This document shows, in pieces, positions 19,461 to 55,229 of a stretch of 64,000 bases of DNA. Each line of letters starts with the position of its first letter. Within the stretch, counting starts at the first letter, position 1. Under the pieces are notes generated by a model, which saw only the letters and a program-made list of their open reading frames with translations, was not told the DNA's origin and did not search any database. A program made the translations under genes and the position numbers. This DNA is from an uncultured Chloroflexia bacterium (GTDB taxonomy: Bacteria > Chloroflexota > Dehalococcoidia > DSTF01 > JACRBR01): NCBI GenBank assembly GCA_963843685.1, contig CAWJLO010000010.1:390933-454932 (forward strand). The letters run 5' to 3'.

Positions 19461-19498
19461 ACCTTGCCCCAGGATTCGCCGTATCGCATCGTAGCGAT

Positions 19499-20912: not shown

Positions 20913-20947
20913 GCCCCAAAACGGACGACGCAGGAAGGACGACCATC

Positions 20948-28540: not shown

Positions 28541-28542
28541 GC

Positions 28543-40048: not shown

Positions 40049-40323
40049 CACGTGGGCATCATCGGGGTCGGAGGGTATCGGGGGCATCGCGCATGAGGCG
40101 GTCGCAGAGCCACACCTGCGGTGGATGCCCGTTCTCCCCCGGATGGCGGAGACCCGTGTGATCGTCAGGGGAGGGAGGAGCTGGCCGTCGCTGGCTCGCC
40201 GGCCGGGTGGCGCACTCGGGGATCTAGGCCCTGAAGCTGGGCCACGGCGCAAGGCCGGCGCGATCGCCTGGTTCGTTCACGAACGCGACGAAGATGAACA
40301 TGACGACCGCGGCGGGAGGCAAG

Positions 40324-41352
40324 TTAGCCCAACACGAGCTCCGCGATCATGCGCAGGGCCGGCGGAGGACCGCCGACAAGCAGGGTCGTGGCGACTGTCT
40401 TCTTCCACTCGGCCAGTTCGTCTCTGATCTTGCCGGCGGGCCCGATCAGCGCGACATCTTCAACGAGGCTGGTGGGCACCGCGGCCATCGCATCGCGCGG
40501 CTTGCCGGCGAGGTAGAGCTCCTGGATCTTCTGGCATTCGCTCTCGTAGCCGAGGCGGACAAAGACGTCGTAGTGGAAGTTTTGCGTGCGGGCGCCCATA
40601 CCGCCGATGTACAGCGCAAGCGTGGGCCGCATCATGTCGGCGGCGGCCTCGACATCGTCGTTGACAATGATCGAGACGGCGGCCGGAACCTCGAAGTCGC
40701 TGAGCGTGCGGCGGGCGCCGGGCCGCGCGAAGCCCTCGGCCAGGGCGTTGCGGTAGAAGGCGTCGCTCTTCGGCGAGAAGAACACGGGCATCCAGCCATC
40801 GGCGATCTCGGCGGCCAACGCGACGTTCTTCGGCCCTTCCGCGCCGAGATAGATAGGGATGTCCGGCCTCAGCGGGTGGACGATCGACTTCAGTGGCTTG
40901 CCGAGGCCTGTGCCACCCCGATGTGGCACCTGATACTGCTTGCCAGCGAATTCGAGCGGCTCCTTGCGCGCGACAATGCGCCGGATGATCTCGACGTATT
41001 CGCGCGTGCGCTCGAGCGGACGCGGATACGGCTGGCCGTACCAACCCTCGACAACCTGCGGACCCGACGCGCCGAGTCCGAGTATGAAACGACCGCCGGA
41101 GAGGTGATCGAGGGTGATCGCCGCCATCGCCATCGCTGCCGGCGTGCGCGCGGAGATCTGCGCGATCGACGTGCCGAGCTTGACGCGGGAAGTGCGGCTG
41201 CCCCACCAGGCGAGCGGCGTCAGGGCGTCCGAGCCGTAAGCCTCGGCCGTCCAGATCGAGTCGAAGCCGAGGTCCTCCGCCATCGCGATCGTGTCGTCGA
41301 TAGCGGCCGGCGGCCCGGCGGTCCAGTAGCCGATCGCGAGGCCGAGCTTCAC
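40324..41352 (-). CDS. LLM-class F420-dependent oxidoreductase (luciferase-like monooxygenase family)
   Basis: MKLGLAIGYWTAGPPAA...GRFILGLGASGPQVVEGWYG is typical of the F420-dependent LLM subgroup. GTG start. Confidence 0.8.
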   Translation of the reverse strand: MKLGLAIGYWTAGPPAAIDDTIAMAEDLGFDSIWTAEAYGSDALTPLAWWGSRTSRVKLGTSIAQISARTPAAMAMAAITLDHLSGGRFILGLGASGPQVVEGWYGQPYPRPLERTREYVEIIRRIVARKEPLEFAGKQYQVPHRGGTGLGKPLKSIVHPLRPDIPIYLGAEGPKNVALAAEIADGWMPVFFSPKSDAFYRNALAEGFARPGARRTLSDFEVPAAVSIIVNDDVEAAADMMRPTLALYIGGMGARTQNFHYDVFVRLGYESECQKIQELYLAGKPRDAMAAVPTSLVEDVALIGPAGKIRDELAEWKKTVATTLLVGGPPPALRMIAELVLG

Positions 41353-41356
41353 GACG

Positions 41357-42482
41357 CTAGCCCTTCACAGCGACGTCGAGCGTCGCCGACATGCGCTCGA
41401 CCGTCGCGACGTAGTCCTCCACTATGGAGTAGATGATCTCGCGGGCGGGCCGAGCGGACTTCATGCTGCCGACGATCTGCCCCACCGGCGTACCCACGAG
41501 CTCCCGAGCGCCGGACTGGTCGCTGCCGCAGTAGCGGTGCATGCGGCTCTGCGCCTCCGCCACGACCATGAACTGCAGCGGCATCGGGAGCGCGCCGGGG
41601 GAGTCGGGGCCGTCCCACGCGTCCGTCCAGGGCGTGCGGAGTTGGCGTGCAGGCTTGCCGCTCATGGAACGCGAACGCACGGTGTCGCGCGAGGTGGCGG
41701 AGAAGAGTTTCTCCTGGACGACGGGGTGCGTGTCGGACTCGGCGGCGGTGAGCCAGATCGAGCCCGTCCACACACCTTCGGCCCCGAGCGCGAGCGCAGC
41801 GGCCGCCTGCCGCCCGCTGCCGATGCCGCCGGCCGCGAGCACGGGGCGCGGCGCGACGGCGGCGACCACTTCCGGGATCAGCACCATCGACGTCACCTCG
41901 CCGGTGTGACCGCCGGCCTCGTAGCCCGACGCGACGATGATATCCGTGCCGGCAGCGACCTGCTGTTGCGCCTGGTGGGCGCTGCCGACGAGCGCGGCCA
42001 CCTTCACGCCGCGATCGTGCGCCTTCTCGATGACGTCCGACGGCGGCGCGCCGAGCGCGTTCGCCAGCAGGCGGATTCGGGTGCGATAGCGCGATGTCAA
42101 CCTGCGTGCGCGCCTGGTCGTGCGTCCATGCGAGGAGTCCGGCCGCGGCGGGGACGTCCGGTGGCAGCGGCGGCACGTTGAAGCGCCGGAGCGTATCCTC
42201 CACGAACTTACGGTGCTGCTCCGGGATCATCTTCTCGAAGTCGTCGGGCGCGGCGGCGCTGACGGACGACGCCGGCATGACGACGTCCACGCCGTACGGC
42301 TTGCCGTCGACGTGCTCGTCGATCCATTTCAGCTCGATCTCGAGCTGGTCGGTCGAGAAGGCGAGCGCGCCGAGCACGCCCATGCCGCCCGCGCGACTGA
42401 CGGCGGCGACGACGTCGCGGCAATGACTGAACGCGAAGATGGGGAACTCAATGCCGAACTCGTCGCAGATGCGTGTGTGCAT
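41357..42482 (-). CDS. Nitronate monooxygenase / 2-nitropropane dioxygenase (NMO) family protein, apparent +1 frameshift near 42080-42095
   Basis: The N-terminal part (MHTRICDEFGIEFPIFAFSHCRDVVAAVSRAGGMGVLG...QARTQVDIALS) is in the frame of track ORF 41349..42482. The downstream part (RTRIRLLANALGAPPSDVIEKAHDRGVKVAALVGSAHQAQQQVAAGTDIIVASGYEAGGHTG...) is in the frame of ORF 41357..42100. Strong RBS GAGGAGG upstream. Confidence 0.75.
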
Positions 42483-42492
42483 ATCGGCCTCC

Positions 42493-43707
42493 TCAGCGTT
42501 CTGGCGTGAACCGCACCGGAAGATGCTTGATGCCGTTGATGAAGTTGGAGCGGAGCCGGTTGGGCTTTCCGGCCGGCTCCATGTCGGGCAGCCGGCGGAA
42601 CAACTCCTCGAAGATCACCTTGATCTCAAGCCGAGCCAGACTGGCGCCAAGGCAGAAGTGGTGTCCGCCGCCACCGAACGCCACGTGTGCATTCGGGCTG
42701 CGCCCCACGTCGAACGTGTCGGCGTCCTCGAAGACGTCCTCGTCTCGATTCGCCGACGGGTAGTACATCACGACCTTCTCGCCCTCGCGAATTCGCTGAC
42801 CCCGGATCTCGACATCGCGCGTGGCCGTACGGCGGAAGTAGATCAGCGGCGACACCCAGCGCAGCATCTCCTCGACGGCGACCGGCATCAGCGACGGATC
42901 GTCGATGAGGCGCTGGCGCTGAGCGGAATGCTCCATAAAGGTCTGCATCGCGCCGGAGATCAGGTTGCGGGTGGTCTCGTTGCCGGCGACGCAGAGGAGC
43001 AGGAAGAAGGCATCGAACTCCGGCTCGCTGAGCAGCACGCCGTCGACCTCAGCCTGCAGCAGCACGCTGATCAGATCGTCGCGCGGAGATTCGCGGCGTT
43101 GTGCCGCAAGCTGGTGCGCATAGAGGAAGAGCTCCGTGGCCGCGTTGGCGCCGTCTTCCGGGGATGTCGTGAGCTCAGGATCGTCAAATCCAATCAGCCG
43201 GTTGCTCCAGTCGAACACCTTGTGACGGTCTTCCTGCGGCACGCCGACCATCTCGGTAATCACCTGCAACGGCAGCTCTGCGGCCACCTCGGTCACGAAG
43301 TCGCACTCGCCACGCTGGGCGATGCCATCGATGATCTTCGCCGTGATCTCGCGCACGTGCGGCTCGAGCTTGCGGATCATCGACGGCGTGAAACCCTGGG
43401 CGACGAGGCGCCGATAGACGGTGTGACGCGGCGGATCCATGTTCAGCATCAGCGTCTGGATCATGGCGAGCCCTTCGGGAGACGGATCCTCGATGTTTGT
43501 CCCCATCCGCGCGGAGGAGAACGTGGCCGAGTCCTGTGAGACGGTGACGATGTCGTCGTACTTCGTCAGCGCCCAGTAGCCGGGCCCGTTCGTCTCTTCG
43601 TGCCAGTAAACAGGCGCTTCTCGTCGCAGCCGCTTGAACACGTCGTGCGGCACGCGCTCGACGTACGAGTCGGCGCTGTAGAGTTCTACTTCCGTGAGCT
43701 GGACCAT
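42493..43707 (-). CDS. Cytochrome P450
   Basis: I-helix AGNETT, EEMLRW (ExxR), heme loop FGGGGHHFCLGASLA. 404 aa. Confidence 0.9.
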   Translation of the reverse strand: MVQLTEVELYSADSYVERVPHDVFKRLRREAPVYWHEETNGPGYWALTKYDDIVTVSQDSATFSSARMGTNIEDPSPEGLAMIQTLMLNMDPPRHTVYRRLVAQGFTPSMIRKLEPHVREITAKIIDGIAQRGECDFVTEVAAELPLQVITEMVGVPQEDRHKVFDWSNRLIGFDDPELTTSPEDGANAATELFLYAHQLAAQRRESPRDDLISVLLQAEVDGVLLSEPEFDAFFLLLCVAGNETTRNLISGAMQTFMEHSAQRQRLIDDPSLMPVAVEEMLRWVSPLIYFRRTATRDVEIRGQRIREGEKVVMYYPSANRDEDVFEDADTFDVGRSPNAHVAFGGGGHHFCLGASLARLEIKVIFEELFRRLPDMEPAGKPNRLRSNFINGIKHLPVRFTPER

Positions 43708-43738
43708 GGTGTGTTCTCCTGTCCGGGGTATAGAGCGA

Positions 43739-44932
43739 TCAGTACGATCGCGGCAGTCCGAGGCTCCACTCCGACACGTAGTTCAGGATCATCTCGCGGC
43801 TGACGGGCGCCGTCTTAAAGAGGCGTGCGCCGAACCAGAGGTGGATGAGGCCGAAGTCCTCCGAGAAGCCGTTGCCTCCGTGCGTCTCCAGCGCCGCGTC
43901 AACCGCTTTGAGCGCGAGATCCGCGCCGAGGAACTTCGCCATGTTCGCCTGCGTGCCCACTTCGAGCGGGTCGAGCCCCTGATCGAACGACCACGCGGCG
44001 CGATACATCATCAGCTTCACCGCTTCGTGCCAGATCTTCGCTTCGGCCAGGGGGTGCGCGATCGACTGGTAGGCGCCGATCGGCGTGTCCTTGAACACGA
44101 CGCGCTCCTTCGCGTAGGCGACGGACTTCTCCAGACACTGCTGCGCCATCCCGGAGCAGATGGCGGCGGCGAGGATGCGCTCCGGGTTGAGGGAGTTGAA
44201 CATCGCCAGCGCGCCGTTCCCCTCCGTGCCGACGATGTTGCCCGCCGGCACGACGACGTCGTCGAAGAAGAGCTGAAACTGGCCGGCGCCGTCGTTCGCC
44301 GGCGTTGGCAGCAGCGTCTTCTCCAGTCCGGGCGACTTCGTGTCGACGAGGAACAGCGAGATCCCCTGGGACTTCGACTTCCCCTCAGCCTGCAGCTCCT
44401 GCACCGTCGTCGTCCGGGCAACGAGCAGCATGTAGTCGGCCTGGTCGACGCCGGTGATGAAGATCTTCTGCCCGTTGATGCGATAGCTGTCGCCGTCCCG
44501 CTTCGCGTGCGTCTCCACGCGGAATGTGTTCGTGCCGGCGTTGGGCTCGGTGACAGCGAAGCAGAGCTTTGTGCGCCCGGCGACAATCTCCGGCAGGAAG
44601 CGGCGCTTTAGCTCCTCCGTGCCGTTGCGGACGATGCACGCGGCGTCCATCGATGTCACGAGCATCAGCCCCGGGAAGAATCCCTGTGCGGTGAGCTCCT
44701 CGAAGGCGATGGTGAGCGCAAGCAGGCCGGCGTTTGTGCCGCCGTACTCCTCCGGCACCAGGCAACCGAGCAGGCCGATGCTGGCGAAGTCGTCCCACAG
44801 CTCCTGCGGAAACTTCCGCTCGGCGCTCATGCGGCGGAACTCCTCGCGGCGCGGGACGTACTTCTGGAGCATCGTCCGGACGGAGGTCCGCACGAGCTGC
44901 TGCTCGTCGCTCAGGGCGAAGTCCAAACTCAT
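43739..44932 (-). CDS. Acyl-CoA dehydrogenase
   Basis: MSLDFALSDEQQLVRTSV...AVTEPNAGTN...ETHGGNGFSEDFGL. 397 aa from the ATG at 44932. Confidence 0.85.
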   Translation of the reverse strand: MSLDFALSDEQQLVRTSVRTMLQKYVPRREEFRRMSAERKFPQELWDDFASIGLLGCLVPEEYGGTNAGLLALTIAFEELTAQGFFPGLMLVTSMDAACIVRNGTEELKRRFLPEIVAGRTKLCFAVTEPNAGTNTFRVETHAKRDGDSYRINGQKIFITGVDQADYMLLVARTTTVQELQAEGKSKSQGISLFLVDTKSPGLEKTLLPTPANDGAGQFQLFFDDVVVPAGNIVGTEGNGALAMFNSLNPERILAAAICSGMAQQCLEKSVAYAKERVVFKDTPIGAYQSIAHPLAEAKIWHEAVKLMMYRAAWSFDQGLDPLEVGTQANMAKFLGADLALKAVDAALETHGGNGFSEDFGLIHLWFGARLFKTAPVSREMILNYVSEWSLGLPRSY

Positions 44933-44960
44933 CGTTTCGATCCGTTCTCCCGTGTCAGCG

Positions 44961-45767
44961 TTATCGCCCCTTGAACTGCGGCACGCGCTTCTCTTTGAAG
45001 GCGCGTGGCCCTTCGCGCGCGTCCTCGGTCGTATACACCTGCTGACCGATGCGGAAGTCAACCTCAAGCGCCTCCGCCTCCGGGAGGCACTCAGTGGCGA
45101 TCACCGCTTCCTTGATCTTCTGCACGGCCACCGGGCCATTCGCCGCGACCTTCGCCGCCATCTCACGCGCGGCAGCGAGCGCCCCGCCCTTCGGCACGAC
45201 ACGTCCGATCAGGCCGAAGCTCAGCGCCTCGTCCGCCGGGTACATGTCGGCGGTGAGGAGCATCTCCATCGCCTTCGTATACGGGATCTGGCGGCGCAGA
45301 CGGATGACGCTCCCGCCCTGCGGGTAGAGCGACCACTTGGCCTCCGTCACGCCGAACACGCTGCCCTCTCCGGCGACGCGGATGTCCGTCCCCTGGAGGA
45401 TCTCGGTCCCGCCCGCGACGCAGTAGCCCTCGACAGCGGCGATCAGCGGCTTCTTGAGCTGCCTGTTCCGAAGGAGACCATCGAAGATGATCGTGTAGTC
45501 AGCACGGATCCGCTCCTCGAACTCGTCCTCCGGGGGGAAGCCGGCCATCGACCGCGCGACGAGCTTGTCGAGGTCGGCGCCCGCGCAGAAGTCGTCGCCT
45601 GCGCCGGTGAGGATGGCGCAGCGGACGTCGGGATCGTCGTCGATGCTCTTCCAGGCGTCAGCGAGGCGGCAGAGCATCTCCATGTTGATGGCGTTCTTTA
45701 CCTCGGGCCGGTTCATCGTCAGCGTCACGAGGTGGCCGTCGCGTTCGACGAGCAGCGCTGGGTTCAC
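44961..45767 (-). CDS. Enoyl-CoA hydratase/isomerase (crotonase) family protein
   Basis: LTMNRPEVKNAIN...ILTGAGDDFCAGADL is the crotonase oxyanion-hole motif. Confidence 0.85.
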   Translation of the reverse strand: MNPALLVERDGHLVTLTMNRPEVKNAINMEMLCRLADAWKSIDDDPDVRCAILTGAGDDFCAGADLDKLVARSMAGFPPEDEFEERIRADYTIIFDGLLRNRQLKKPLIAAVEGYCVAGGTEILQGTDIRVAGEGSVFGVTEAKWSLYPQGGSVIRLRRQIPYTKAMEMLLTADMYPADEALSFGLIGRVVPKGGALAAAREMAAKVAANGPVAVQKIKEAVIATECLPEAEALEVDFRIGQQVYTTEDAREGPRAFKEKRVPQFKGR

Positions 45768-45771
45768 GCGA

Positions 45772-47406
45772 TCATCCTTTCGTCCCGGCGGCGGGCGCCG
45801 CCATGCTGGTTTCGATCGCGCGTTCCTTCGCCCACTTGTAATCGGTCTTACCGCTCGGCGAGCGCATCACTTCTTCGACGATCGTGAGCTGGCGAGGCAC
45901 CTTGTAGCCGGAGATCTTCGTCCGGGCGTATGCATCCAGGTCGGCGAGTGTGAGCGTGTGACCGGGCCGGAGCTGCACGACGGCAGCGACGCGCTCGCCC
46001 CAGCGCTCGTCCGGCACGCCGACGACGACGGCGTCAAAGATCGCCTCATGCGACTTGAGCGCGGACTCGACCTCGTCCGGGTAGATCTTTTCGCCGCCGC
46101 TGTTGATGCAGACCGAGCCGCGGCCGAGCAGCGTGACCGTACCGTCGGCCTCAACGGTGGCTCGGTCGCCCGGGATCACCCATCGGACGCCGTTCTCGTC
46201 TGTCATGAACGTGGCGGCCGTCTTCTTCTCGTCCTTGTAGTAGCCCAGCGGCATGCGGCCACGCCGCGCGACCATGCCGACGACGCCGGAGCCGGGCGCT
46301 ACGGGCCGCAGGTTCTCGTCCAGCACCGCGGAGTTGGCGTCGACCATGAAGCGCGGCTTGCCGCCCTCGTTCGTCCCGAGATTCATGCCCGAGTGACCCA
46401 CCTCCGACGCGCCGAGGGCGTCAATGAGGAGGGTGTTGGGGAGCTGCGCCTTGAGCTGGTCCTTCACCGCCTGCGAGAAGACGGCGCCACCGGACGAGAT
46501 CACGGCCAGCGACGATGTGTCGTACGAGGCGCCGGGGGCGGCGAGCGCCTCCGCCAGGGGCCTCGCCATCGCGTCGCCAACGATCACGAGGATGTTGACG
46601 CGCTCCTTGCCGACCAGCGTCCAGATCTCGTGCGTGTCCATGCGGTGGCTGGTCGTCAGCACGGCTTTGCCGCCGCCGTGCAGGCCGATCATCACAGACC
46701 AGTGTCCGTTTCCGTGCATCAGCGGCGCGACGGGCAGCGTGCACGTGGGATTGGGGTTCTTTCTCGCGTTCTCGCCGAGCTCTTCAGGGCGGGTGATGTC
46801 GGGTCCGCCCGGGTTGCCGCCCTGCAGTCCGCCGAAGAACATGTCCTCCTGCCGCCACATGACCCCCTTGGGCATGCCGGTCGTGCCACCGGTGTACAGC
46901 AGGTAGAGGTCGTCGGCGGAGCGCGGGCCGAAGTCACGCGCGGGGGACGCCGCGGCCAGCGCAGCCTCGTACTCGACGTCGCCCGCGCTCGCCGGGCTCG
47001 CTTCCGTGCCATCTTCCACAAGCACGAAGTGCCGCAGCGTCTTCACCGTCGGCGCGACGGCGGCAACTCGCTGCGCGAACTCGCGGTGGTACACGAGCGC
47101 CGCGAGGTCAGCGTCGTCGAAGAGATACTTCAGCTCGTCCTCCACGTACCGGAAGTTGATGTTCACAGGGGCGGCGCGGATCTTGTACGCCGCGAGCGCC
47201 GCCTCGACGTACTCGATGCAGCTGTAGAGATAGAGGCCGATGTGATCGCCGGCGCGGATGCCGCTGTCGAGGAAGTGGTGGGCCAGCCGGTTGGACCGCT
47301 CATCAAGCTGCGCGAACGTCAGGCGGCGATCGCCATGCACGAGCGCCTCGCGCCCAGGGACGGCGTCGGCAACGCATTCGTACAGGTCAGCGAGATTGAA
47401 CTCCAT
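45772..47406 (-). CDS. Acyl-CoA synthetase (AMP-forming), FadD-like
   Basis: LYTGGTTGMPKGV (AMP-binding motif I). 544 aa. Confidence 0.85.
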   Translation of the reverse strand: MEFNLADLYECVADAVPGREALVHGDRRLTFAQLDERSNRLAHHFLDSGIRAGDHIGLYLYSCIEYVEAALAAYKIRAAPVNINFRYVEDELKYLFDDADLAALVYHREFAQRVAAVAPTVKTLRHFVLVEDGTEASPASAGDVEYEAALAAASPARDFGPRSADDLYLLYTGGTTGMPKGVMWRQEDMFFGGLQGGNPGGPDITRPEELGENARKNPNPTCTLPVAPLMHGNGHWSVMIGLHGGGKAVLTTSHRMDTHEIWTLVGKERVNILVIVGDAMARPLAEALAAPGASYDTSSLAVISSGGAVFSQAVKDQLKAQLPNTLLIDALGASEVGHSGMNLGTNEGGKPRFMVDANSAVLDENLRPVAPGSGVVGMVARRGRMPLGYYKDEKKTAATFMTDENGVRWVIPGDRATVEADGTVTLLGRGSVCINSGGEKIYPDEVESALKSHEAIFDAVVVGVPDERWGERVAAVVQLRPGHTLTLADLDAYARTKISGYKVPRQLTIVEEVMRSPSGKTDYKWAKERAIETSMAAPAAGTKG

Positions 47407-47420
47407 GTCCCCTCCTCCCG

Positions 47421-48572
47421 CTACGGTTTCTCACTGCCGAGGATCCACATCGAAAAGAACTGCGAGCCGCCGCCATACGCGTGGCCGAGAGCTGTGCGCA
47501 CGCCGTCGACCTGATGCTCGCCGGCGCGGCCGCGCACCTGCAGCGCCGCTTCGGCGAAGCGCAGCATGCCCGAGGCGCCGATCGGGTTCGACGAAAGCAC
47601 GCCTCCCGACGGGTTGACGGGCATGTCGCCGTCGAACGCCGTCGAGCCGTCGACGACCATGCGCCATCCTTCCGTCTCAGGCGCGAACCCCAGGTTCTCC
47701 ATCCACATCGGCTCGTACCAGCTGAACGGCACGTAGATCTCCGCGACGTCAATCTCGCGACGGGGATTCGTGATGCCCGCCTGACGATAGACCTCGGAGG
47801 CGCAGTCACGCCCTGCCCGCGGGTTCACCTGATCGCGGCCGGCGAACATCGTCGGCTCGCTGCGCATGGCCGAGGCGTGGACCCAGGCAGGCCGATCGAT
47901 GTTCGCGGCGGCGGACTCGCTCGCGAGCACCATCGCGCAGGCACCGTCGGACGACGGGCAGGTCTCAAGGAAGCGGATGGGATCCCAGAGCATCGGCGAC
48001 TCTGCGATCTTCGCCATCGTTATGTCTTCCATGTGCAGGTGCGCGTACGGATTGCGCATCGCGTTGACGCGGTCCTTGAGCGCGACGCGCATGCCGACGT
48101 CAGCCGGGGCGCCCGAGCGGCGGATGTAGGCGCGGATGTGCGGCGCAAAGTAGCCGCCGGCGCCGGCGACGACCGCCGGCTGGAACGGCAGCTTCGGCGC
48201 CAATGCCCACATGGCATCACTCTCGGACTGTTTCTCGAAGGCGACGGTGAGCACGCGCTGATGCAGTCCCGCCTGCACCAGACTCGCCGCGACGAGCGCC
48301 GTCGACCCGCCGACGCTGCCGGCAGTGTGGACGCGCATCATCGGCTTGCCCGCACATCCGAGGGCATCCGCCAGGTACAGCTCAGGCATCATCACGCCTT
48401 CGAACATGTCTGGCGCCTTGCCGATGACGACGGCGTCGATGTCACGCCACGTGAGTGAGGCGTCTTCGAGCGCACGCAACGCGGCTTCCCGCAACAGGCC
48501 CGGGATCGAGACGTCTTCCCGTCGCGCGGCGTGCTTCGTCTGGCCGATGCCGATGACGGCGCAGCGTTCCAT
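47421..48572 (-). CDS. Thiolase-like protein (SCP-x/lipid-transfer-protein-type thiolase)
   Basis: Thiolase fold with C-terminal NPSGG...GASG motifs. Probable start MERCAVIGIGQTK at 48572 (ORF track 47421..48614). Confidence 0.75.
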   Translation of the reverse strand: MERCAVIGIGQTKHAARREDVSIPGLLREAALRALEDASLTWRDIDAVVIGKAPDMFEGVMMPELYLADALGCAGKPMMRVHTAGSVGGSTALVAASLVQAGLHQRVLTVAFEKQSESDAMWALAPKLPFQPAVVAGAGGYFAPHIRAYIRRSGAPADVGMRVALKDRVNAMRNPYAHLHMEDITMAKIAESPMLWDPIRFLETCPSSDGACAMVLASESAAANIDRPAWVHASAMRSEPTMFAGRDQVNPRAGRDCASEVYRQAGITNPRREIDVAEIYVPFSWYEPMWMENLGFAPETEGWRMVVDGSTAFDGDMPVNPSGGVLSSNPIGASGMLRFAEAALQVRGRAGEHQVDGVRTALGHAYGGGSQFFSMWILGSEKP

Positions 48573-49633
48573 CAACGGCCCTCCATCACGCAGACCAGAT
48601 TCTGCTGCAGGCACGGGCCCGACGTCGCGTGGGCGACGGCGCGCTTGGCAGAACCGTCGATGATGCGCTGCGCGGCTTCGCCGATGCGGATCAGGCCCGC
48701 CGCCATCACCGGATTGGCCGTCAGCGCGCCGCCGGACGGGTTTACGGCGACGTCATCGCCCAGGCCGAGCGCGTCGCGCAGGATGAGCTCCTGGTGCGTG
48801 AACGGAGCGTGCAGTTCGGCAACCTCGACCGGGACATGGCCGTTGCCGAGCCCCGCGTGCCTGGCCGCGAGCTCGGTCGACGTGGAGCGGGCGAGATCGC
48901 GCGCTCCGAGCGACGCCGGCTCGATGCGGTGATCGATGCCGCGGATCCACGCCGGGCGCTCGCAGACCTTGCGCGCGAGATCGCCGGCGGCGAGCACGAC
49001 GGCGGCGGCGCCATCGGAGATCGGAGGACAGTCGTGCTTGCGCAGCGGCGACACGAACGACGGCGCGGCGAGCGCGCCTTCGACGTCAAGCGCGTCACGC
49101 ACCTGGGCGCTCGGGTTGAATGCGGCGTCCCGACGGCTGCGTGCGGCGACCATCGCCATGTCGCGCTGCGTGTACTTTCCGGCATCGAGCAGAGCGCGGG
49201 CCTGGAGCGCGGCGACGCTGACCGAGTCGGGCCAGAGCGGAGCGACGCAGTACGGGTCGAGTTGCAGCGCGAGGACGTCGGGGAGGTCGCCGAGGGATGA
49301 CTTGCCGAACGCGTACACGAGCGCGGAGTCGATGTCGCCATGCTGGAGGCGCACCCACGCCTCGTACAACGCCCAGGCGCCGTCCATCTCGACGTGCGAC
49401 TCCGCCACCGGCGGCCAAGCGCCGACAGCGTCCAGCGCCATGACGAAGGCGAACGGCTGGCCGGCGAGGTAGTCGGACGAGCCGGAGCAGACGAAGCCCA
49501 GCGAGTGACGGTCGATACCGGATCGCTCCAGCGCCTCGCTGACGACCGGCATGAGGATCTCGACCTCGTTGCGACGGGTATCGGAGCGCACGCTCGGCGC
49601 CTGCGCGAACGAGACGACGGCCACGTCGCGCAT
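48572..49633 (-). CDS. Thiolase-like protein (Ltp/aldolase-type paralog)
   Basis: 353 aa with a thiolase-like C-terminal VAVNPSGGALTANPVMAAGL. TGATG overlap with the downstream paralog. Confidence 0.75.
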   Translation of the reverse strand: MRDVAVVSFAQAPSVRSDTRRNEVEILMPVVSEALERSGIDRHSLGFVCSGSSDYLAGQPFAFVMALDAVGAWPPVAESHVEMDGAWALYEAWVRLQHGDIDSALVYAFGKSSLGDLPDVLALQLDPYCVAPLWPDSVSVAALQARALLDAGKYTQRDMAMVAARSRRDAAFNPSAQVRDALDVEGALAAPSFVSPLRKHDCPPISDGAAAVVLAAGDLARKVCERPAWIRGIDHRIEPASLGARDLARSTSTELAARHAGLGNGHVPVEVAELHAPFTHQELILRDALGLGDDVAVNPSGGALTANPVMAAGLIRIGEAAQRIIDGSAKRAVAHATSGPCLQQNLVCVMEGR

Positions 49634-50121
49634 CAGAGGTGCTCCTTGTAGGAGTCGAAGGGCGCGTCAGCCTCACCGGTGGGTTTGAAGTGGCGGATGC
49701 TGTTCATGCTCGGGCCGCGCTCTTCCGCGGGCACCCACACGGCCTTGACGCGCATGCCCATACGAACCTCCTGCGCGTCGATCTCCTGTACGAGATGGAA
49801 GAGCGGGATATCCGCGCCGTCGAGCAGGATCGATGCGGACACGTACGGTACGCGCACCGCCTGGCCGGCGAAGGGGATGTTGACGATGCAGAACGTCGTT
49901 ACAGTGCCTGTGTCCGCGACCGGCACCTCTTCATGCGTGGGGACGCCGCACGTCGGACAGGATCCCCGCGGCGGCACGTACACCTTGCGGCACTCCGGGC
50001 AGCGCTGGCCGACGAGCCGCCCTTCGGCGACGGCACCCAGAAAGCGCGACGAGGCCTGACCAGCGACGTATGTGTAGTCGAGTCGGATCGGCGTCTTGAT
50101 GCCGTAGACGCGCGCGGTCAC
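49633..50121 (-). CDS. DUF35 family OB-fold/Zn-ribbon protein
   Basis: CPECRKVYVPPRGSCPTCG zinc ribbon followed by an OB-fold. GTG at 50121, GTGA-coupled to the upstream paralog. Confidence 0.7.
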   Translation of the reverse strand: MTARVYGIKTPIRLDYTYVAGQASSRFLGAVAEGRLVGQRCPECRKVYVPPRGSCPTCGVPTHEEVPVADTGTVTTFCIVNIPFAGQAVRVPYVSASILLDGADIPLFHLVQEIDAQEVRMGMRVKAVWVPAEERGPSMNSIRHFKPTGEADAPFDSYKEHL

Positions 50122-50585
50122 TCCGCTGCCTCCGGCTCGAAGCAGACGATGTCGTGGATCTCGCCGAGAGTCTCGTCCCGCCAACGCGGACGCACGCGCA
50201 TCCCGGTTGACATGCGCGCTTCGGTGCCTGCGTCGACGGCGTGCAGCATTGCGGTGTCGGCGCCATCGAGCTTGATCAGCGCCCAAGCGAAGGGTCGGTC
50301 GAACGGGTGCTTCGGGCGGGGATGATTGACCCAGGCCCACGTCGTGACGACGCCGCCCGGGCCTACCTGCACGAATTCGTCGCTGACGGCGTCGCCCGTT
50401 TCGGGGTCGTACTCCTGCGGCGGAACGAGCACGCGGCCGCTCGCCGTACGCACCCCGACGATGCGCCGCTCTTGTAGTTCGCCGAGGAAGCGGCCAATGA
50501 TCGGCCCGACGCTGCGCGTGTACGCGTACTCCAGTTCGTGCGGTGCAGTCAGCGGAGCGACGTCTGTCGTGTTGCGTTCGATCAT
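50118..50585 (-). CDS. DUF35 family OB-fold protein (paralog; Zn-ribbon cysteines not evident)
   Basis: 155 aa with the same overall architecture as the adjacent DUF35 protein. Confidence 0.65.
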   Translation of the reverse strand: MIERNTTDVAPLTAPHELEYAYTRSVGPIIGRFLGELQERRIVGVRTASGRVLVPPQEYDPETGDAVSDEFVQVGPGGVVTTWAWVNHPRPKHPFDRPFAWALIKLDGADTAMLHAVDAGTEARMSTGMRVRPRWRDETLGEIHDIVCFEPEAAE

Positions 50586-50595
50586 CCCTGCGCCC

Positions 50596-51441
50596 TCATG
50601 CGCGTTGCGCGGCGGCAGCGGCCGTCGTCGGCTGTCGGCTGCCCCAGAACAGCCGATCCGCGTTGGCGTACAGGAACTTGTCGAGCACGCCCTCGCGCAG
50701 ATCCAGCTCCTGGGCCTCCTTCACGCAGCGCTCGAACGAAAGCACCGGGTGGTCAGAGGCGAACATGATCTTGTCCTGGCCGCGCGTGTTCATGAACTGG
50801 ATCAGCTCCGGCGGGAAGTAGCGCGGCGCGTAGGCGGACGTCTGCAGGTAAAGGTTCCGGTACTTGATCATCAGCCGGATGGCGACGTTCCACCACGGAT
50901 CGGCGCCGTGCGCCATCACGAGCTTCAGTTCCGGAAAGAAGACGCACACCTCGTCGAGGTACATGGGATCCTGGCACTTGCCGGGCATGGGCGGGCCGGG
51001 GATACCGGTGTTGATGGCAATCGGCAGATCCAGCTCGATGCACTTCGCGTACACCGGATAGTAGACCTTGTCGTTGGGCGGCAGGTCGATCATGAACGGA
51101 GTGATGCGCGCCAGCACGACGGGCTGATCGCGCACAAGGCGCTCCAGCGCGCGGATGGCCTCCATCCCTTGCCGCGGATCGAGCGAAATGGACAGGACAA
51201 AACGGTCGGGGTTCGCCCGCGGGAACTGGAGCACGTGTTCGGCGGGCTTATCGGCGGTCGTTGTGATGATGGCCTTCTCCACGCCCGCGCGGTCCATCGC
51301 CTCCGTCAGCTCGGCGACAGAGATGTCCTTGAAGATCGCGTCGGCGCGGTTGAAGTAGTCCTCGGCCACGCGCACGAGCCACGGCGGCCGCTCGACTGAG
51401 CCCATGTTCACGTTGACAAAGGTGTCGATGGCGCGTGGCAT
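50596..51441 (-). CDS. Amidohydrolase-2 family metal-dependent hydrolase (TIM barrel)
   Basis: 281 aa with conserved His/Asp positions of the PF04909-like fold (VNVNMG...HGADPWW...FASDHP). Confidence 0.7.
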   Translation of the reverse strand: MPRAIDTFVNVNMGSVERPPWLVRVAEDYFNRADAIFKDISVAELTEAMDRAGVEKAIITTTADKPAEHVLQFPRANPDRFVLSISLDPRQGMEAIRALERLVRDQPVVLARITPFMIDLPPNDKVYYPVYAKCIELDLPIAINTGIPGPPMPGKCQDPMYLDEVCVFFPELKLVMAHGADPWWNVAIRLMIKYRNLYLQTSAYAPRYFPPELIQFMNTRGQDKIMFASDHPVLSFERCVKEAQELDLREGVLDKFLYANADRLFWGSRQPTTAAAAAQRA

Positions 51442-51444
51442 GGG

Positions 51445-52473
51445 TCAGGCCTCGCTCGCGCCGTTCGAGCCTTCGGCCGGAGGCGCGTCCGCGGTGTAGA
51501 ACTGCTTGCACCAGCGGCGGTACACGCCGATCGGCCCGTCGCCGTCGCAGAGCACCGGGCGCGCCTTCATGATCTTGTGTTCCCAGATCGGGATGTCCTG
51601 ACCGAGCTGGCGTTCGATCTCGGCAATAAACGCTTTGCCGACGCCGGCGGTCGCGTCGGCGTTGCCCAGCTTCTTCACCTTGAACGAGAACCGCACATCC
51701 ATGTACTCGCCATCGATCGGCGTCACCGAGGACACCAGCATCGTTTCGACGAGACCGGTGAAACGCACGACGCCGAACCCGAAGCCGTAGTTCGTCGACT
51801 CGATGCCGCCCTCGACCGTGCCCTGCGGCGTGGTGTAGTTGACGGGCGATTTCGCGCGGAAGACGTGGCCATCGACCTCGGCGCGCGTCATCGGCTGCTC
51901 GGGCGTGCCGTGCACGTACTTGAAGTGCGCGGAGTCGACGGCGTTCTCACCCATCTCCTGGTTGTGGGAGCGCACTTTCCAGCGGCGGCGCGTGTAGTCG
52001 GTCCAGTCCGTCGACGTGTACTCGGCGAGGCGCGGCACGTCCCATTGCGGCGCCTGCCCGCCGATGTGGTGCCACAACATGATCAGGCCGTTGGCCTCGC
52101 TGACATGCCAGGGGTCCAGCTTTGCGAGCGGCGGGATCTTGTTGGCGTACGGCACCTCCACGCACTGGCCGTCGCCGTTGAAGCGCCAGGCGTGGAACGG
52201 GCAACGGATGCAGCCGTCCTCCACCTTCCCGCCGTAGCCGAGATGCGCTCCGAGGTGCGGGCAGAAGGCGTCGAGCACGTGGGCCACGCCCGTGCCGTCG
52301 CGGAAGAGCACCAGATGCTTGCCGAAGTACTCCAGCGGCACCACGCCGTTAACCTCAAGCTCGTCACTGTAGGCCACCTGGAACCAGCCGTTGGGAAACG
52401 GAGGGATGGGGAAGCGATAGTCGGGCGGCGCATCCGGGAATTGGACGACGTCTGGGTTGGCCGTGAGAGTCAT
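51445..52473 (-). CDS. Rieske [2Fe-2S] non-heme iron oxygenase alpha subunit (KshA-like)
   Basis: CPHLGAHL...CPFHAW Rieske motif and a D-x2-H-x4-H mononuclear iron motif (DSAHFKYVHG). 342 aa. Confidence 0.8.
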   Translation of the reverse strand: MTLTANPDVVQFPDAPPDYRFPIPPFPNGWFQVAYSDELEVNGVVPLEYFGKHLVLFRDGTGVAHVLDAFCPHLGAHLGYGGKVEDGCIRCPFHAWRFNGDGQCVEVPYANKIPPLAKLDPWHVSEANGLIMLWHHIGGQAPQWDVPRLAEYTSTDWTDYTRRRWKVRSHNQEMGENAVDSAHFKYVHGTPEQPMTRAEVDGHVFRAKSPVNYTTPQGTVEGGIESTNYGFGFGVVRFTGLVETMLVSSVTPIDGEYMDVRFSFKVKKLGNADATAGVGKAFIAEIERQLGQDIPIWEHKIMKARPVLCDGDGPIGVYRRWCKQFYTADAPPAEGSNGASEA

Positions 52474-52488
52474 GGCTCTGCTCCTGCG

Positions 52489-53208
52489 CTACTGGGACGC
52501 AACCGGGTTGGGATAGTGAAGGTCTTCACTGCCATCGGGCGAGAGCTGCCGAAAGAGCTGGGTCACCAGGTGCTCGCGCCGCGCGATCAACGCATCCACT
52601 GACAGCGGGTCGCCTGGCTTGATACGCTCGATCAGCGGCCGGTGGCAGAAGTAACCGATGAGCTGCACGTGCAGGTCGTGGATGAAGAACGCCGGGTCGA
52701 TAGTCCGGATTGCGCCGGCGTCCATCGCGCGCTCGAGCATGCGCATCGCCGGCACGTAGATCGGCTCGACGAAGCGGCTGAAATACGCCTCAGGCTCTGC
52801 CGACTCCAGCAGTTCACGCTCCAGGATGCGGGCGAGGGCGATGTGTTCGGCGAAGAACGCGTGGATCTGGTCGAGCATATACGCCACGCGGTCGCGCTTG
52901 AACTCCCCGGCAAGGAACTCATCCATGACGAGAGCGATCCGCCCGAGCGCCTCGTCCAGCACCGCCTCGTGGAGGGCCTCCTTCGTCGCGAAGTGGTACA
53001 GGACGGTCGTCTTGTGCGTGCTGGCGGCGTCGGCGATCTCCTGCACGGAGACAGCGCCGAAGCCGCGATCAGCGAACAACTCGGTCGCGGCGTCGAGGAT
53101 AGCGCGGCGCCGATCCGAGCGTGGCGCGCGTGTTTCCTCACCAGTTGTCGCCGGTTTTACTACCATTTGGTGAGCGCGAGCATACGCCCGGTGAGGAGCG
53201 ATTGTCAA
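52489..53208 (-). CDS. TetR/AcrR family transcriptional regulator
   Basis: HTH: RRRAILDAATELFADRGFGAVSVQEIADAASTHKTTVLYHFATKEAL. Start ambiguous (TTG 53208 or ATG 53166). Confidence 0.75.
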   Translation of the reverse strand: MTIAPHRAYARAHQMVVKPATTGEETRAPRSDRRRAILDAATELFADRGFGAVSVQEIADAASTHKTTVLYHFATKEALHEAVLDEALGRIALVMDEFLAGEFKRDRVAYMLDQIHAFFAEHIALARILERELLESAEPEAYFSRFVEPIYVPAMRMLERAMDAGAIRTIDPAFFIHDLHVQLIGYFCHRPLIERIKPGDPLSVDALIARREHLVTQLFRQLSPDGSEDLHYPNPVASQ

Positions 53209-53235
53209 GACGTTGGGTGGGGTGGGTGAAGGGCC

Positions 53236-54957
53236 CTAGCTTGACGCCCCGTTGGCCAGCCAGAACATGTTGAGCAGGTACTGGGTCGTGCCGACGCCGG
53301 CGGGGATGTTGTGCACGTCCGGCCAGTACGCCTGGAACATGTACGGCGTCACGAGCGGCAGGTACGCGGGCTCTTTGCCATAGATCACCTTCTGGGCGTC
53401 GTGCACGGCCTTGATCCGCTCGGTCACGTCGATCGTCTCCTTGGTCTTCTCGACGGCCGCTTCTATGTCCGGATCTCCGAGACCGCGCACGTACGTGTGG
53501 TCGCCGAGCGGGCCGGCACTCGTGTGGAAGCCCAGAGGGATCTCCGCAGTCTCGTAGATCTGGTTCAGCGACAGCGAGCAGTGGTAATTCAGCTTGCTGA
53601 AGTTGTCGATCCAGGTCGGCAGATCCTGCGGGTCGTGGTCTATCTGGATGCCGGCATCGCTCATCTGGCCGAGGAAGATGGGGAGGTGCTTGTCGTGCTC
53701 CTCCAGCAGCGTGCCGCTCGGGTACATCATCTTCAGCTTGATGCCGCCGACCTGCTGGACCAGGCTCTTGGCCTCGTCGAGGTTGTACGGCTGATACGTC
53801 TGCTTCAGATCGTCCTGGTCAAGCGCGTAGTCCCCAACGGGCCAGTGCACAAGGCCGTCCGGCCTGGCTTCGCCGCCGTACACGATGTCGACGTACGCAT
53901 CGCGGTCGATGGCGCGGGAGATCGCGCGGCGGGCGCGCGGATCGTCGAACGGCGGCTGTGTTGGATTCATCGCGAAAGCGATGAACGAGAAGTTGGGGTC
54001 GCGCTGGATCACGAATCGATCCGCGAGATCCTTCGCTTCGGCCGCGCTTGCCGGCACGTACCGGTGCAACTGCTTGCTGAGGAACGCGGTACGGGCCGCC
54101 GAGCGGTCGAAGATGAGCTTGACGTCGAGACCGTCGACGTAAGGCAGTTGTTGGCCCGTCCCGTCGTCCTTGCGGTAGTAGTTCGGGTTTCTATCGAACG
54201 TTGCGCCCTCACCCTCGCTGACGGAGGTGAGACGATACGGGCCCGCGCCCGCAGCATGCTGCTCGAGGCGAGAGAGATCGCCAGCCAGCAACTCCCGCGG
54301 CGCGATGGTATTGACGAAGAGTCCGATACGGTTCAGGAACCACGCGTACGGTGCGGTGGTGCGAATGGTGACGGTGTCGGCCGCCGTGTCGACCGACTCG
54401 ATGTACTGGCTGGCGAATGCATAGTTGTTGGCTTCCTTCGTCGACTTGATGCGCTCGATGTTGACGCGCACGTCCTCCGCATCGAGGTCGCGCTCCGGCA
54501 CTCCGAGGTCGTTGGGCGCCACCTTGACGCCCGGGCGAATCTTGAACACGAACGTCTGAGCGTCGGGCATCTCGAGCGAAGACGCCAGGTCGAAGTAGAG
54601 GAATTCAGGCTTCGTGGCGCACTGGTTGACGAGCACGTTGTAGACGCGCGGGAAATATGCGGAGGCGAGGGCGATGCCGATGTGCGGATCCCACGTCCCG
54701 AAGTCGGCGGCCTCCGACGTCTGGAAGCGGCCGCCCCGCACGGGCGTCCCGCCGCCGTTCAGCAAATCAGGGCCATCCGGGACGCTGGTGGCGACCACCG
54801 TGGCGCCGGCGACAGAGCTCGTCTTGCCGCCGCCGCAGCCGACGACCGGGACCATGGCGGCGGCCGCGGCGCCTACACCGGCGGCGCGCAGGACGCTGCG
54901 TCGCGATCGACGCTGCATCACGAATCGTTGCCAATAGCCGTTCGTCTCGCTCTTCAT
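53236..54957 (-). CDS. ABC transporter substrate-binding protein, family 5 (peptide/nickel type), Tat-signal lipoprotein
   Basis: QRRSRRSVLRAAGVGAAAAAMVPVVGCGGG is a twin-arginine signal plus lipobox. 573 aa. No adjacent permease genes. Confidence 0.8.
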   Translation of the reverse strand: MKSETNGYWQRFVMQRRSRRSVLRAAGVGAAAAAMVPVVGCGGGKTSSVAGATVVATSVPDGPDLLNGGGTPVRGGRFQTSEAADFGTWDPHIGIALASAYFPRVYNVLVNQCATKPEFLYFDLASSLEMPDAQTFVFKIRPGVKVAPNDLGVPERDLDAEDVRVNIERIKSTKEANNYAFASQYIESVDTAADTVTIRTTAPYAWFLNRIGLFVNTIAPRELLAGDLSRLEQHAAGAGPYRLTSVSEGEGATFDRNPNYYRKDDGTGQQLPYVDGLDVKLIFDRSAARTAFLSKQLHRYVPASAAEAKDLADRFVIQRDPNFSFIAFAMNPTQPPFDDPRARRAISRAIDRDAYVDIVYGGEARPDGLVHWPVGDYALDQDDLKQTYQPYNLDEAKSLVQQVGGIKLKMMYPSGTLLEEHDKHLPIFLGQMSDAGIQIDHDPQDLPTWIDNFSKLNYHCSLSLNQIYETAEIPLGFHTSAGPLGDHTYVRGLGDPDIEAAVEKTKETIDVTERIKAVHDAQKVIYGKEPAYLPLVTPYMFQAYWPDVHNIPAGVGTTQYLLNMFWLANGASS

Positions 54958-55229
54958 CCGGACTCTCAGAGGCTCGGTCGTTTCCGAAGTGCACTGTGTA
55001 TAGCACTATCGCGCTCGCACCGTCGAGACGCGACGGCGGCGCTCGTTCACGATTTCGCACCGGACGGCCGGTGCACGCGCTTCGGCTTGACGCACAAGTT
55101 GACGAGATCGGTCAGCTTTGGCAGACGGCGCGCAGGGGCGATGGCGCGGACGTGCTCGATGCGCATGGATCGACGATAATCGTGAGTGCGCCGGCGGTTG
55201 TGCCGTCGCCGAACCAGGAGTCGCAGCAC

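Follow-up and report, generated by a model that had tools for sequence, protein, structure and literature searches.

The closest described relatives of the 13-gene cluster that occupies positions 40324-53208 (minus strand) of a 64-kb stretch of DNA from an uncultured Chloroflexota bacterium of the class Dehalococcoidia (assembly GCA_963843685.1, contig CAWJLO010000010.1), hereafter the window, are the sterol side-chain genes of actinobacteria. In M. tuberculosis, Rv3520c is divergent from Rv3521, KstR binds the intergenic region between them (PMC1995591), and the KstR regulon includes ltp3, ltp4, fadD19 and echA19 (PMC1995591; gene table in PMC6429209). The corresponding locus tags of S. hirsuta are 32635 for fadD19, F1721_32655 for the Rv3521 homologue, 32660 for ltp4 and 32665 for ltp3, and the product of 32655, whose gene is induced 2.9-fold by cholesterol, is still called hypothetical (PMC8708139, PMC9782250). 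In Rhodococcus rhodochrous, as the works of Wilbrink (2011, 2012) are cited in PMC6273163, ltp3, ltp4 and fadD19 are needed for C24-branched sterols and not for cholesterol. The steroid aldolases Ltp2 and Sal each build an alpha-beta-beta-alpha complex with a DUF35 domain and carry the motifs YDHF (Ltp2, with Tyr294 as the base) and YDCY (Sal); Sal has a glycine at the nucleophile position, and 50 residues past the motif tyrosine stands Tyr344 in Ltp2 or Gln352 in Sal (PMC12329534). As for the host group, a hypothesis drawn from genomes credits SAR202 Chloroflexota with the oxidation of alicyclic matter of a sterol- or hopanoid-like kind (PMC5395668).

Open reading frame (ORF) and domain searches gave 13 consecutive, co-directional genes on the minus strand, in the order of transcription: a TetR regulator, a Rieske protein with a KshA_C domain, an Amidohydro_2 protein, two DUF35 proteins (DUF35a and DUF35b), Ltp4-type and Ltp3-type thiolase-fold proteins, an AMP-ligase, a crotonase, an acyl-CoA dehydrogenase (ACAD), a cytochrome P450, a gene listed as nitronate monooxygenase ('NMO') and an F420-dependent luciferase-like oxidoreductase (LLM). 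This unidirectional cluster, with the same domains at the same coordinates, had been described in an earlier sequence-only reading of the window and was borne out for every ORF; the gene boundaries given there hold as to position and had to be revised for the TetR start, the extent of DUF35b, the FadE (ACAD) and Ltp3 starts and the reading frame of the NMO-type gene. The enzyme logic recognised in that reading, by which actinobacteria degrade the side chains of sterols or branched lipids, is upheld too, and with a stronger case than was made there, by five proteins that score above NCBIfam cut-offs and by shared synteny. With moderate confidence, and from the homology of its proteins, we propose that the operon encodes the first catabolic round of a sterol-type isoprenoid side chain that is alkyl-branched beside the terminal isopropyl; the model substrates are sterols with a methyl or ethyl group at C24, for example campesterol and sitosterol. 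The operon is a known kind of system, found in an unexpected bacterial group.

The identical 13-gene order, preceded by an SBP_bac_5 gene, was found in three independent Dehalococcoidia contigs of metagenome-assembled genomes (MAGs), L001 (GCA_040902505.1), L002 (GCA_030157145.1) and L083, whose outer flanks differ, which argues for a conserved operon rather than a chance arrangement. The operon proteins share 68-92% amino-acid identity with those of L001 and L002. Intergenic gaps are 3-31 nt across the 13 genes, and overlaps of 1-4 nt occur at DUF35a/DUF35b, DUF35b/Ltp4 and Ltp4/Ltp3, these start-stop overlaps being consistent with translational coupling. The four genes joined in this way are the following.

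50118-50585, minus strand: DUF35a, OB-fold DUF35 protein of 155 aa, OB_ChsH2_C domain alone, no CxxC motifs
49633-50121, minus strand: DUF35b, zinc ribbon and OB fold (zf-ChsH2 plus OB_ChsH2_C), 162 aa and not the 235-aa ORF, CxxC..CxxC present
48572-49633, minus strand: Ltp4-type thiolase-fold protein, 353 aa, NF005924/PRK07937
47421-48572, minus strand: Ltp3-type thiolase-fold protein (397-aa ORF 47421-48614, most likely starting at 48572), NF006180/PRK08313

The arrangement of these four genes corresponds to that of the actinobacterial loci. DUF35b occupies the position of Rv3521 and of S. hirsuta F1721_32655, and the layout is that of Rv3521-Rv3522-Rv3523. Among cultured steroid-degrading actinomycetes, two Saccharopolyspora loci (L062 and L065) contain FadD, a second FadD, LLM, DUF35a, DUF35b, Ltp4 and Ltp3, with CYP and NMO genes nearby and EchA in L065; their spacing is exactly that of the S. 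hirsuta locus tags, and their core proteins are 62-68% identical to those of the window. Compared with M. tuberculosis Rv3515c-Rv3523, matching genes are present for FadD19-like, EchA19-like and CYP125-like proteins, an Rv3520c-type LLM, two DUF35 proteins and Ltp4-like and Ltp3-like proteins. The DUF35-DUF35-ltp4-ltp3 order is shared with the Mycobacterium, Rhodococcus and Saccharopolyspora sub-cluster, and the NMO/FabK-like gene is near it in Saccharopolyspora too. The Chloroflexota locus differs from this sub-cluster in its host, in having all genes in one co-directional operon, in its non-KstR TetR gene without a KstR operator, and in having a KshA-like Rieske and an Amidohydro_2 gene inside the operon with no ring-degradation genes nearby. 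It also has one homomeric-type ACAD instead of the paired FadE genes that follow FadD in several actinobacterial and myxobacterial loci.

The 397-aa and 353-aa thiolase-fold proteins were assigned with the NCBIfam models. The former reached 695 bits with PRK08313 (cut-off 514, next-best model 229) and the latter 564 bits with PRK07937 (cut-off 419, next-best model 107). We take PRK08313 to be Ltp3 and PRK07937 to be Ltp4, from RefSeq naming and from the synteny with the annotated ltp3 and ltp4 of S. hirsuta. A true thiolase/DUF35 system, either BbsAB-like or of the archaeal acetoacetyl-CoA thiolase/HMG-CoA synthase scaffold type, would perform thiolytic beta-oxidation or Claisen condensation. 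For such a system speak the thiolase-fold proteins encoded beside DUF35 proteins and the matches to the solved BbsB (7pxp, 112 bits) and archaeal thiolase (6esq, 102 bits). Both proteins, however, fall far under the cut-offs of the archaeal acetoacetyl-CoA thiolase model (152 versus 600) and of the BbsB model (129 versus 750) and are above those of Ltp-type models, so that a grouping with acetoacetyl-CoA thiolase or HMG-CoA synthase-type partners, named in the sequence-only reading as the result that would refute its interpretation, was not obtained. There is also no HMG-CoA synthase gene, nor an operon 3-hydroxyacyl-CoA dehydrogenase to supply a beta-keto substrate.

The catalytic sites point the same way. 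Alignments with SCP2-thiolase, BbsB, archaeal-type thiolase and 4yzo showed that in Ltp3 (ORF numbering) the nucleophilic cysteine is replaced by Gly99 (RVHTAGSVGG), the HDCF motif by Y294-V-P-F and the histidine of GHP by Asn343. In Ltp4 the nucleophilic cysteine is replaced by Met (VEMDGAW), HDCF reads HAPF and GHP reads ANP. These replacement residues are invariant or nearly so in about 80 homologues. Since the nucleophilic cysteine and the GHP histidine are replaced in both, neither Ltp3 nor Ltp4 can perform thiolysis, and a true thiolase/DUF35 system is highly improbable. The earlier term 'Ltp-like thiolases' is thus correct for the Ltp type and not for the thiolase activity. Archaeal thiolase-HMGCS-DUF35, PhlABC and BbsAB are precedents for a thiolase, or two different thiolase-fold proteins, joined by DUF35 (PMC12329534), with PhlC and BbsB as detectable relatives; the enzymes of these assemblies retain the catalytic cysteine and Claisen or thiolytic chemistry, whereas the catalytic cysteine is missing here.

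Loss of the nucleophilic cysteine, as Gly99 in Ltp3 and Met in Ltp4, goes together with two coupled DUF35 genes upstream, a combination of SCP2-thiolase fold and DUF35 partner that is shared with Ltp2-ChsH2 (T. curvata, 6ok1) and Sal-Shy (C. testosteroni). The tyrosine of the Ltp3 YVPF sequence aligns with the catalytic-base tyrosine of YDHF (Ltp2) and YDCY (Sal). Ltp3 shares with Sal the glycine in place of the nucleophilic cysteine, and the amide of Asn343 lies about 49 residues past the tyrosine, where Sal has Gln352. The first tyrosine of the motif is common to all three, but YVPF is without the Asp and His/Cys, and the subfamilies differ (69 bits between the window protein and 6ok1). When Tyr344 or Cys304 is taken as the second catalytic residue of the Ltp2/Sal aldolases, neither Ltp3 (YVPF) nor Ltp4 (HAPF) carries the aldolase motif. 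At best, then, Ltp3 and Ltp4 would resemble aldolases in their way of working, and they do not appear to be members of the Ltp2/Sal family. The Ltp/DUF35 logic proposed earlier therefore stands, with a different counterpart: the paralogues are Ltp3 and Ltp4 with their own DUF35 pair and not Ltp2/ChsH2, Ltp2 (6ok1) giving 69 bits. Further differences from Ltp2-ChsH2 and Sal-Shy are that two thiolase-fold subunits and two DUF35 proteins, one of them without zinc ribbon, take the place of a homodimer with one DUF35 type, and that the DUF35 proteins are free-standing, with no fusion to a MaoC hydratase. From these motifs Ltp3 is a candidate retro-aldolase subunit and Ltp4 probably a non-catalytic or auxiliary partner. 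Because the four-gene order is fixed, the start and stop codons overlap and the motifs differ as described, we infer a hetero-oligomer in which Ltp3 would be catalytic and Ltp4 an auxiliary pseudo-enzyme, each capped by its own DUF35 protein.

The four-gene module was followed in 82 loci, 80 of them from a scan of species-representative genomes for Ltp4-like proteins (60-74% identity), with L001 and L002 added. The hosts of the 80 loci are Acidimicrobiia and other Actinomycetota, Myxococcota, 'Deltaproteobacteria', Spirochaetota, Gammaproteobacteria, Streptomyces and two Saccharopolyspora species. The order DUF35a-DUF35b-Ltp4-Ltp3 on one strand was observed in all 82, no locus having fewer than three of the four genes detected; under stricter thresholds DUF35b was found in 78 of the 82 loci, Ltp3 in 79 and DUF35a, upstream, in every one. 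This fixed order and orientation in loci from several phyla, with the overlapping stop and start codons, argues for a complex. In a neighbour-joining tree of Ltp4 and Ltp3, the Dehalococcoidia clade falls among sequences from myxobacterial MAGs and some from actinomycetotal ones, the classical actinomycetes being placed elsewhere.

For the 80 loci from outside the Dehalococcoidia we counted which operon genes lie up to 10 kb to either side of the core, at identities of at least 40% and coverages of at least 60%. FadD was present in 25 loci, Rieske in 15, EchA and LLM in 12 each, Amido2 and NMO in 10 each and CYP in 7; the window-type ACAD, the TetR and the solute-binding protein (SBP) were present in none. 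Everything stands in one operon only in the Dehalococcoidia relatives. Clustering of the ORFs of these loci gave as recurrent extras a second ligase group, TetR proteins, SDRs, ACADs and the NMO-like gene. In many Acidimicrobiia the core lies beside glutamyl-tRNA synthetase (GluRS), DUF218 and sulfatase genes, which the ORF clustering identified as phylogenetic hitch-hikers.

The enzymes that would act before the aldolase are encoded downstream of the core.

42493-43707, minus strand: CYP125/124-clade P450, 404 aa, predicted terminal-methyl (C26-type) oxidase
45772-47406, minus strand: FadD19-like acyl-CoA synthetase, 544 aa, NF005863/PRK07798 at 736 bits (cut-off 543)
43739-44932, minus strand: acyl-CoA dehydrogenase of a single-gene, lineage-specific type, 397 aa, three ACAD domains, generic NCBIfam matches, start most likely at 44932
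44961-45767, minus strand: EchA19-like enoyl-CoA hydratase, 268 aa, PRK07799 at 364 bits (cut-off 316)

In the proposed pathway, the CYP125-like P450 would oxidise a terminal methyl group to the acid (step 1), the FadD19-like ligase would form the CoA thioester (step 2), the acyl-CoA dehydrogenase would introduce the alpha,beta double bond (step 3), and the EchA19-like hydratase would add water to give a tertiary beta-alcohol, which could not be oxidised to a ketone (step 4). The complex of Ltp3, Ltp4, DUF35a and DUF35b would then cut the C-alpha-C-beta bond by retro-aldol cleavage into propionyl-CoA and a ketone (step 5), with the YVPF tyrosine of Ltp3 as the putative catalytic residue, in an arrangement that may mirror the alpha-beta-beta-alpha organisation of Ltp2-ChsH2 and Sal-Shy. 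No 3-hydroxyacyl-CoA dehydrogenase and no functional thiolase are encoded in the operon, which fits the retro-aldol route.

The four upstream activities expected by the sequence-only reading (CYP125, FadD19, FadE and EchA19 types) are all present, the hydratase being EchA19-like rather than a certified EchA19, as it falls below the cut-off of the EchA19 equivalog NF051848 (344.9 versus 400). Over 400 positions the P450 shares 61% identity with CYP125MRCA (8vxi, 544 bits), and it is 46% identical to CYP124A1; the haem-binding FGGGxHxCLG region is intact, with FGGGGHHFCLGA present. It therefore has the identity of at least 40% and the haem-thiolate motif that define the CYP125 family, with the caveat that the 46% identity to CYP124A1 passes the same level. 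CYP125MRCA, a reconstructed ancestor, hydroxylates both cholesterol and phytosterols at C26, with a 3.2-fold preference for stigmast-4-en-3-one, and its pocket residues M243/F400, against F260/W414 in CYP125A1, were singled out as a difference between this ancestor of broader range and CYP125A1 (PMC12100521). The equivalents in the window protein, A233 and F389, are ancestor-like or smaller, Ala being smaller than both the Met of the ancestor and the Phe of CYP125A1. By analogy with CYP125MRCA we infer that the P450 may oxidise sterols at C26/C27; no ferredoxin adjoining the P450 was found. The FadD is 50% identical to the product of the Saccharopolyspora gene in the position annotated as fadD19 in S. 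hirsuta. ACAD orthologues at 40% identity or more are restricted to L001 and L002.

Two further oxidoreductase genes close the operon.

41357-42482, minus strand: FabK/'NMO'-type FMN enoyl reductase-like gene, frameshifted, listed as ORF 41349-42482
40324-41352, minus strand: F420-dependent luciferase-like oxidoreductase, 342 aa, Rv3520c subfamily, TIGR03559 at 483.5 bits (cut-off 335)

The sequence-only reading had regarded the LLM and the NMO as unusual additions and had taken them as a sign that the substrate may be a different one. Both are recurrent partners of the core. The LLM belongs to the Rv3520c subfamily, whose namesake lies in the KstR-bound region of M. tuberculosis, and recurs in 12 other loci; the NMO-like gene recurs beside the core in 10, including those of Saccharopolyspora. 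Consequently they give no ground for a different substrate. The solved relatives of the LLM are remote and all of the Mer type. A cofD gene (2-phospho-L-lactate transferase, F420 biosynthesis) at 66-917 on the plus strand of the window shows that the genome can make F420, the cofactor predicted for an Rv3520c-type LLM. A role of the Rv3520c-type LLM as a Baeyer-Villiger enzyme was rejected, Rv3520c having been reported inactive in an NADPH-dependent assay for Baeyer-Villiger monooxygenase (BVMO) activity that was not F420-dependent.

The name 'NMO' itself was not retained. The intact L002 orthologue matches FabK enoyl-ACP reductases at 145 bits, its nearest solved relatives, and nitronate monooxygenases at 68. 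In the window the gene has a +1 frameshift at about 42076-42077, so that residues 1-134, from 42482 to about 42078, and residues from about 135 to 374, down to 41357, are read in different frames. Removal of one A at about 42076-42077 (CCGAATCC) restores a protein of 374 aa, and the restored CCGATCC parallels CACCCCGTCCGT of L002. Split genes abound in L083, a long related contig, so that a pseudogene is no likelier an explanation than an indel of the assembly.

The two genes that follow TetR encode a Rieske protein and an amidohydrolase.

51445-52473, minus strand: KshA-family Rieske non-haem iron monooxygenase, 342 aa, Rieske and KshA_C domains
50596-51441, minus strand: Amidohydro_2 TIM-barrel protein, 281 aa, assigned by Pfam, no NCBIfam family

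The only close solved relatives of the Rieske protein are the KshA steroid 9-alpha-hydroxylases. It is 35% identical to KshA5 of Rhodococcus (4qdc) over 298 aligned positions and keeps CxH..CxxH, HxxxxH and the Asp ligand. The KshA-like architecture and metal ligands read from the sequence alone are therefore confirmed, and KshA orthology was rejected on the 35% identity, the length (342 versus 386-394 aa) and the lack of an NCBIfam KshA match; the architecture is shared with KshA, but the protein belongs to a separate orthologous group linked to the Ltp3/4 core. Its orthologues near the core in the 15 other loci are 41-64% identical. No KshB-type reductase gene was identified in the 64-kb window. 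In the amidohydrolase F8-x-N10 (IDTFVNV) stands in place of the HxH metal motif, with H178, D230 and H231 kept; its nearest structures are two uncharacterised proteins (best BB4693, 3irs), followed by ACMSD/LigW-type decarboxylases. The FabK-like reductase, LLM, Rieske protein and amidohydrolase are candidates for side-chain double-bond reduction, tertiary-carbon hydroxylation, (de)carboxylation and the handling of the ketone or of carboxylated intermediates.

The presence of the Rieske gene raises a second explanation, after the manner of ibuprofen (Ipf) degradation, in which a ligase forms a CoA thioester, the Rieske enzyme hydroxylates it directly and the thiolase-like/DUF35 proteins remove the acyl-CoA. 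Sphingomonas Ibu-2 IpfABDEF uses such gene logic, and enzymes of the KshA type, which hydroxylate at a tertiary carbon, can accept CoA thioesters. The co-location of ligase, Rieske, thiolase-like and DUF35 genes, with the Rieske gene by the core in 15 other loci, agrees with this scheme, but the operon contains a full desaturase and hydratase pair that makes direct hydroxylation unnecessary. Moreover, the Rieske protein is a monooxygenase of the KshA_C type, genes for a beta subunit or for the cleavage of aromatic rings are not found nearby, and most loci have the core without any Rieske gene. We consider an Ipf-like route unlikely, and with it the substrates that it would imply, namely an alkanoic acid of aromatic or alicyclic type or, in a saturated sterol acyl-CoA, the tertiary C24/C25 position.

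A number of observations weigh against the proposed sterol side-chain pathway. Steroid-ring genes (KstD, KshB, Hsa, Ipd), a Mce4-type transporter and redox partners of the Rieske protein or the P450 are absent from the 64-kb window. CYP124 (347 bits) and CYP125A1 (342 bits) are equally distant from the P450. Of the aldolase motifs Ltp3 keeps the tyrosine without the Asp and His/Cys; to our knowledge no Ltp3/Ltp4 enzyme has been biochemically characterised. The NMO-like gene is frameshifted as read. The classical scheme for sitosterol, with C28-carboxylation, needs a carboxylase, and ORF clustering gave no such gene tied to the core, whichever locus was considered. The core stands without other operon genes within 10 kb in 40 of the 82 loci (e.g. 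L015, L033, L051, L082), which leaves room for a broader role or for partners encoded elsewhere. Mutants of Mycolicibacterium neoaurum deleted for ltp3 or ltp4 still turn phytosterols into 4-HBC (PMC10398937), so that the role of Ltp3/Ltp4 is not universal or not essential. Finally, on steroid degradation by Chloroflexota the literature search gave only the genome-based SAR202 hypothesis (PMC5395668) and no demonstration.

Several of these points favour the same chemistry on a non-steroid branched isoprenoid, such as hopanoid or triterpenoid side chains, phytol/phytanate-type acids or alicyclic carboxyl-rich matter. The P450 scores equally with CYP125A1 and CYP124, a methyl-branched lipid omega-hydroxylase; the window has no steroid-ring catabolic genes; the stand-alone cores occur in phyla that are not known as steroid degraders; the SAR202 hypothesis covers sterol- or hopanoid-like alicyclic matter generally (PMC5395668); and phytosterols are still converted by M. 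neoaurum when ltp3 or ltp4 is deleted (PMC10398937). Every component with a characterised close relative nevertheless points to sterols (CYP125MRCA at 61%, KshA as the sole close solved relative of the Rieske protein, and the FadD19, EchA19, Rv3520c and Ltp3/4 families, which belong to the KstR regulon). From pathway chemistry, oxidation at the isopropyl end of a regular isoprenoid would give alpha-methyl and not beta-alkyl branches, for which an aldolase would be unneeded. A non-steroid isoprenoid is a serious rival, at clearly less than even chances, and the sterol-type side chain remains our preferred substrate. A bolder proposal, which we consider doubtful, is that uncultured aerobic Chloroflexota, from soil or aquatic lineages labelled Dehalococcoidia, attack eukaryotic 24-alkyl sterols with a self-contained operon and a new hetero-oligomeric retro-aldolase at its centre (Ltp3 with YVPF, the pseudo-enzyme Ltp4 and two distinct DUF35 proteins as caps), that the KshA-like oxygenase, HxH-less amidohydrolase, FabK-like reductase and F420 enzyme form a carboxylase-independent route for the C24 branch, and that the module is shared with Myxococcota, Acidimicrobiia and Spirochaetota, which would explain Rv3519-Rv3523 of M. 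tuberculosis.

If the sterol-type reading holds, it would place sterol-type side-chain catabolic genes in Chloroflexota and give concrete genes with which the SAR202 hypothesis can be tested. The comparison ties Rv3520c, Rv3521, ltp4 and ltp3 of the mycobacterial cholesterol region to a widespread four-gene module of more than 60% identity, whose conserved motifs predict a hetero-oligomeric aldolase and not thiolases. Being compact and supplying a complete set of enzymes, the operon lends itself to biochemical reconstitution, and its enzymes may aid the engineering of phytosterol conversion.

The start of the operon was analysed for regulatory signals.

53179-53208, minus strand: sigma-70-like promoter, TTGACA, 18-nt spacer, TATGCT, the sole promoter-like site found in 39400-55800
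53159-53174, minus strand: 16-nt block CTCACCAnATGGTAGT, invariant, covering the TetR start codon and the predicted start of transcription
52489-53166, minus strand: TetR-family regulator, 225 aa, TetR_N domain

The TetR gene starts at the ATG at 53166 (MVVKP, kept in the relatives L001 and L002), and 53179-53208 is promoter and not coding sequence. This promoter, whose TTGACA hexamer is invariant across the four Dehalococcoidia loci (window, L001, L002 and L083), serves TetR and probably all the other genes of the operon too. The block CTCACCAnATGGTAGT is identical in the same four loci although the flanking sequence has diverged; it is matched exactly at one place only in the window and contains the inverted repeat ACCAnnTGGT. 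We regard it as a putative operator, or as an element for leaderless starts, on a transcript with almost no leader. No inverted repeats of 8 nt or more were found in 53100-53300 (TetR start) or 52440-52520 (TetR/Rieske junction). The KstR operator TnnAACnnGTTnnA, for which a search near 53209-53235 had been suggested, has no match anywhere in the 64-kb window, and the TetR protein was rejected as a KstR orthologue (31 bits with the KstR model, cut-off 280). A local TetR repressor, and not KstR, would probably control the operon through the conserved promoter and the operator-like block.

The G+C content of the window is about 67% and that of the cluster equals its surroundings, which argues against recent import. 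Where named, the nearest homologues are proteins of Dehalococcoidia, Chloroflexi or Chloroflexota MAGs, at 73-92% identity for the Ltp4-like protein, 74-100% for the amidohydrolase and 60-94% for Mfd (8013-11933), and one Dehalococcoidia contig of 59,292 bp bears both an Mfd homologue and a cluster homologue (P0123, P0006, P0248); the window is accordingly assigned to Chloroflexota and not to an actinobacterium. Immediately upstream of the operon lies one further gene.

53236-54957, minus strand: family-5 solute-binding protein with a twin-arginine-type N-terminus, SBP_bac_5 domain

The SBP gene is upstream of the operon in L001, L002 and L083 and absent from the other 80 loci; its membership in the operon system is uncertain. 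In L001 a 502-aa protein without Pfam match (4872-6380) is encoded between SBP and TetR and is missing from the window and L002. A divergent flavin monooxygenase/BVMO-like gene next to SBP (about 55650-57149, plus strand, in ORF 54657-57149) was considered as ketone handler and rejected, having no homologue in the 82 loci.

The rest of the window is of housekeeping type: besides cofD, YjeF, Pth and Mfd it carries an ABC/FtsX pair and genes for a type IV pilus. Another group of lipid-type genes, unrelated to the operon, lies at 15209-22198, where two APH-type phosphotransferases (15600-16649 and 19499-20539) flank DUF6285, DUF7064/7065 and an N-terminally extended acyl-CoA dehydrogenase (20702-22198). 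The minus strand of 24223-35340 carries a type IV pilus/type II secretion-like set of two T2SSE ATPases, T2SSF, a PilM-like protein and a prepilin with an N-methylation motif, interspersed with several ORFs without Pfam match. Downstream of the BVMO-like gene, the minus strand of 57902-63774 encodes DUF6807, a GFO/IDH/MocA oxidoreductase, a DHDPS-family protein, an Old-Yellow-Enzyme-like protein and UPF0182.

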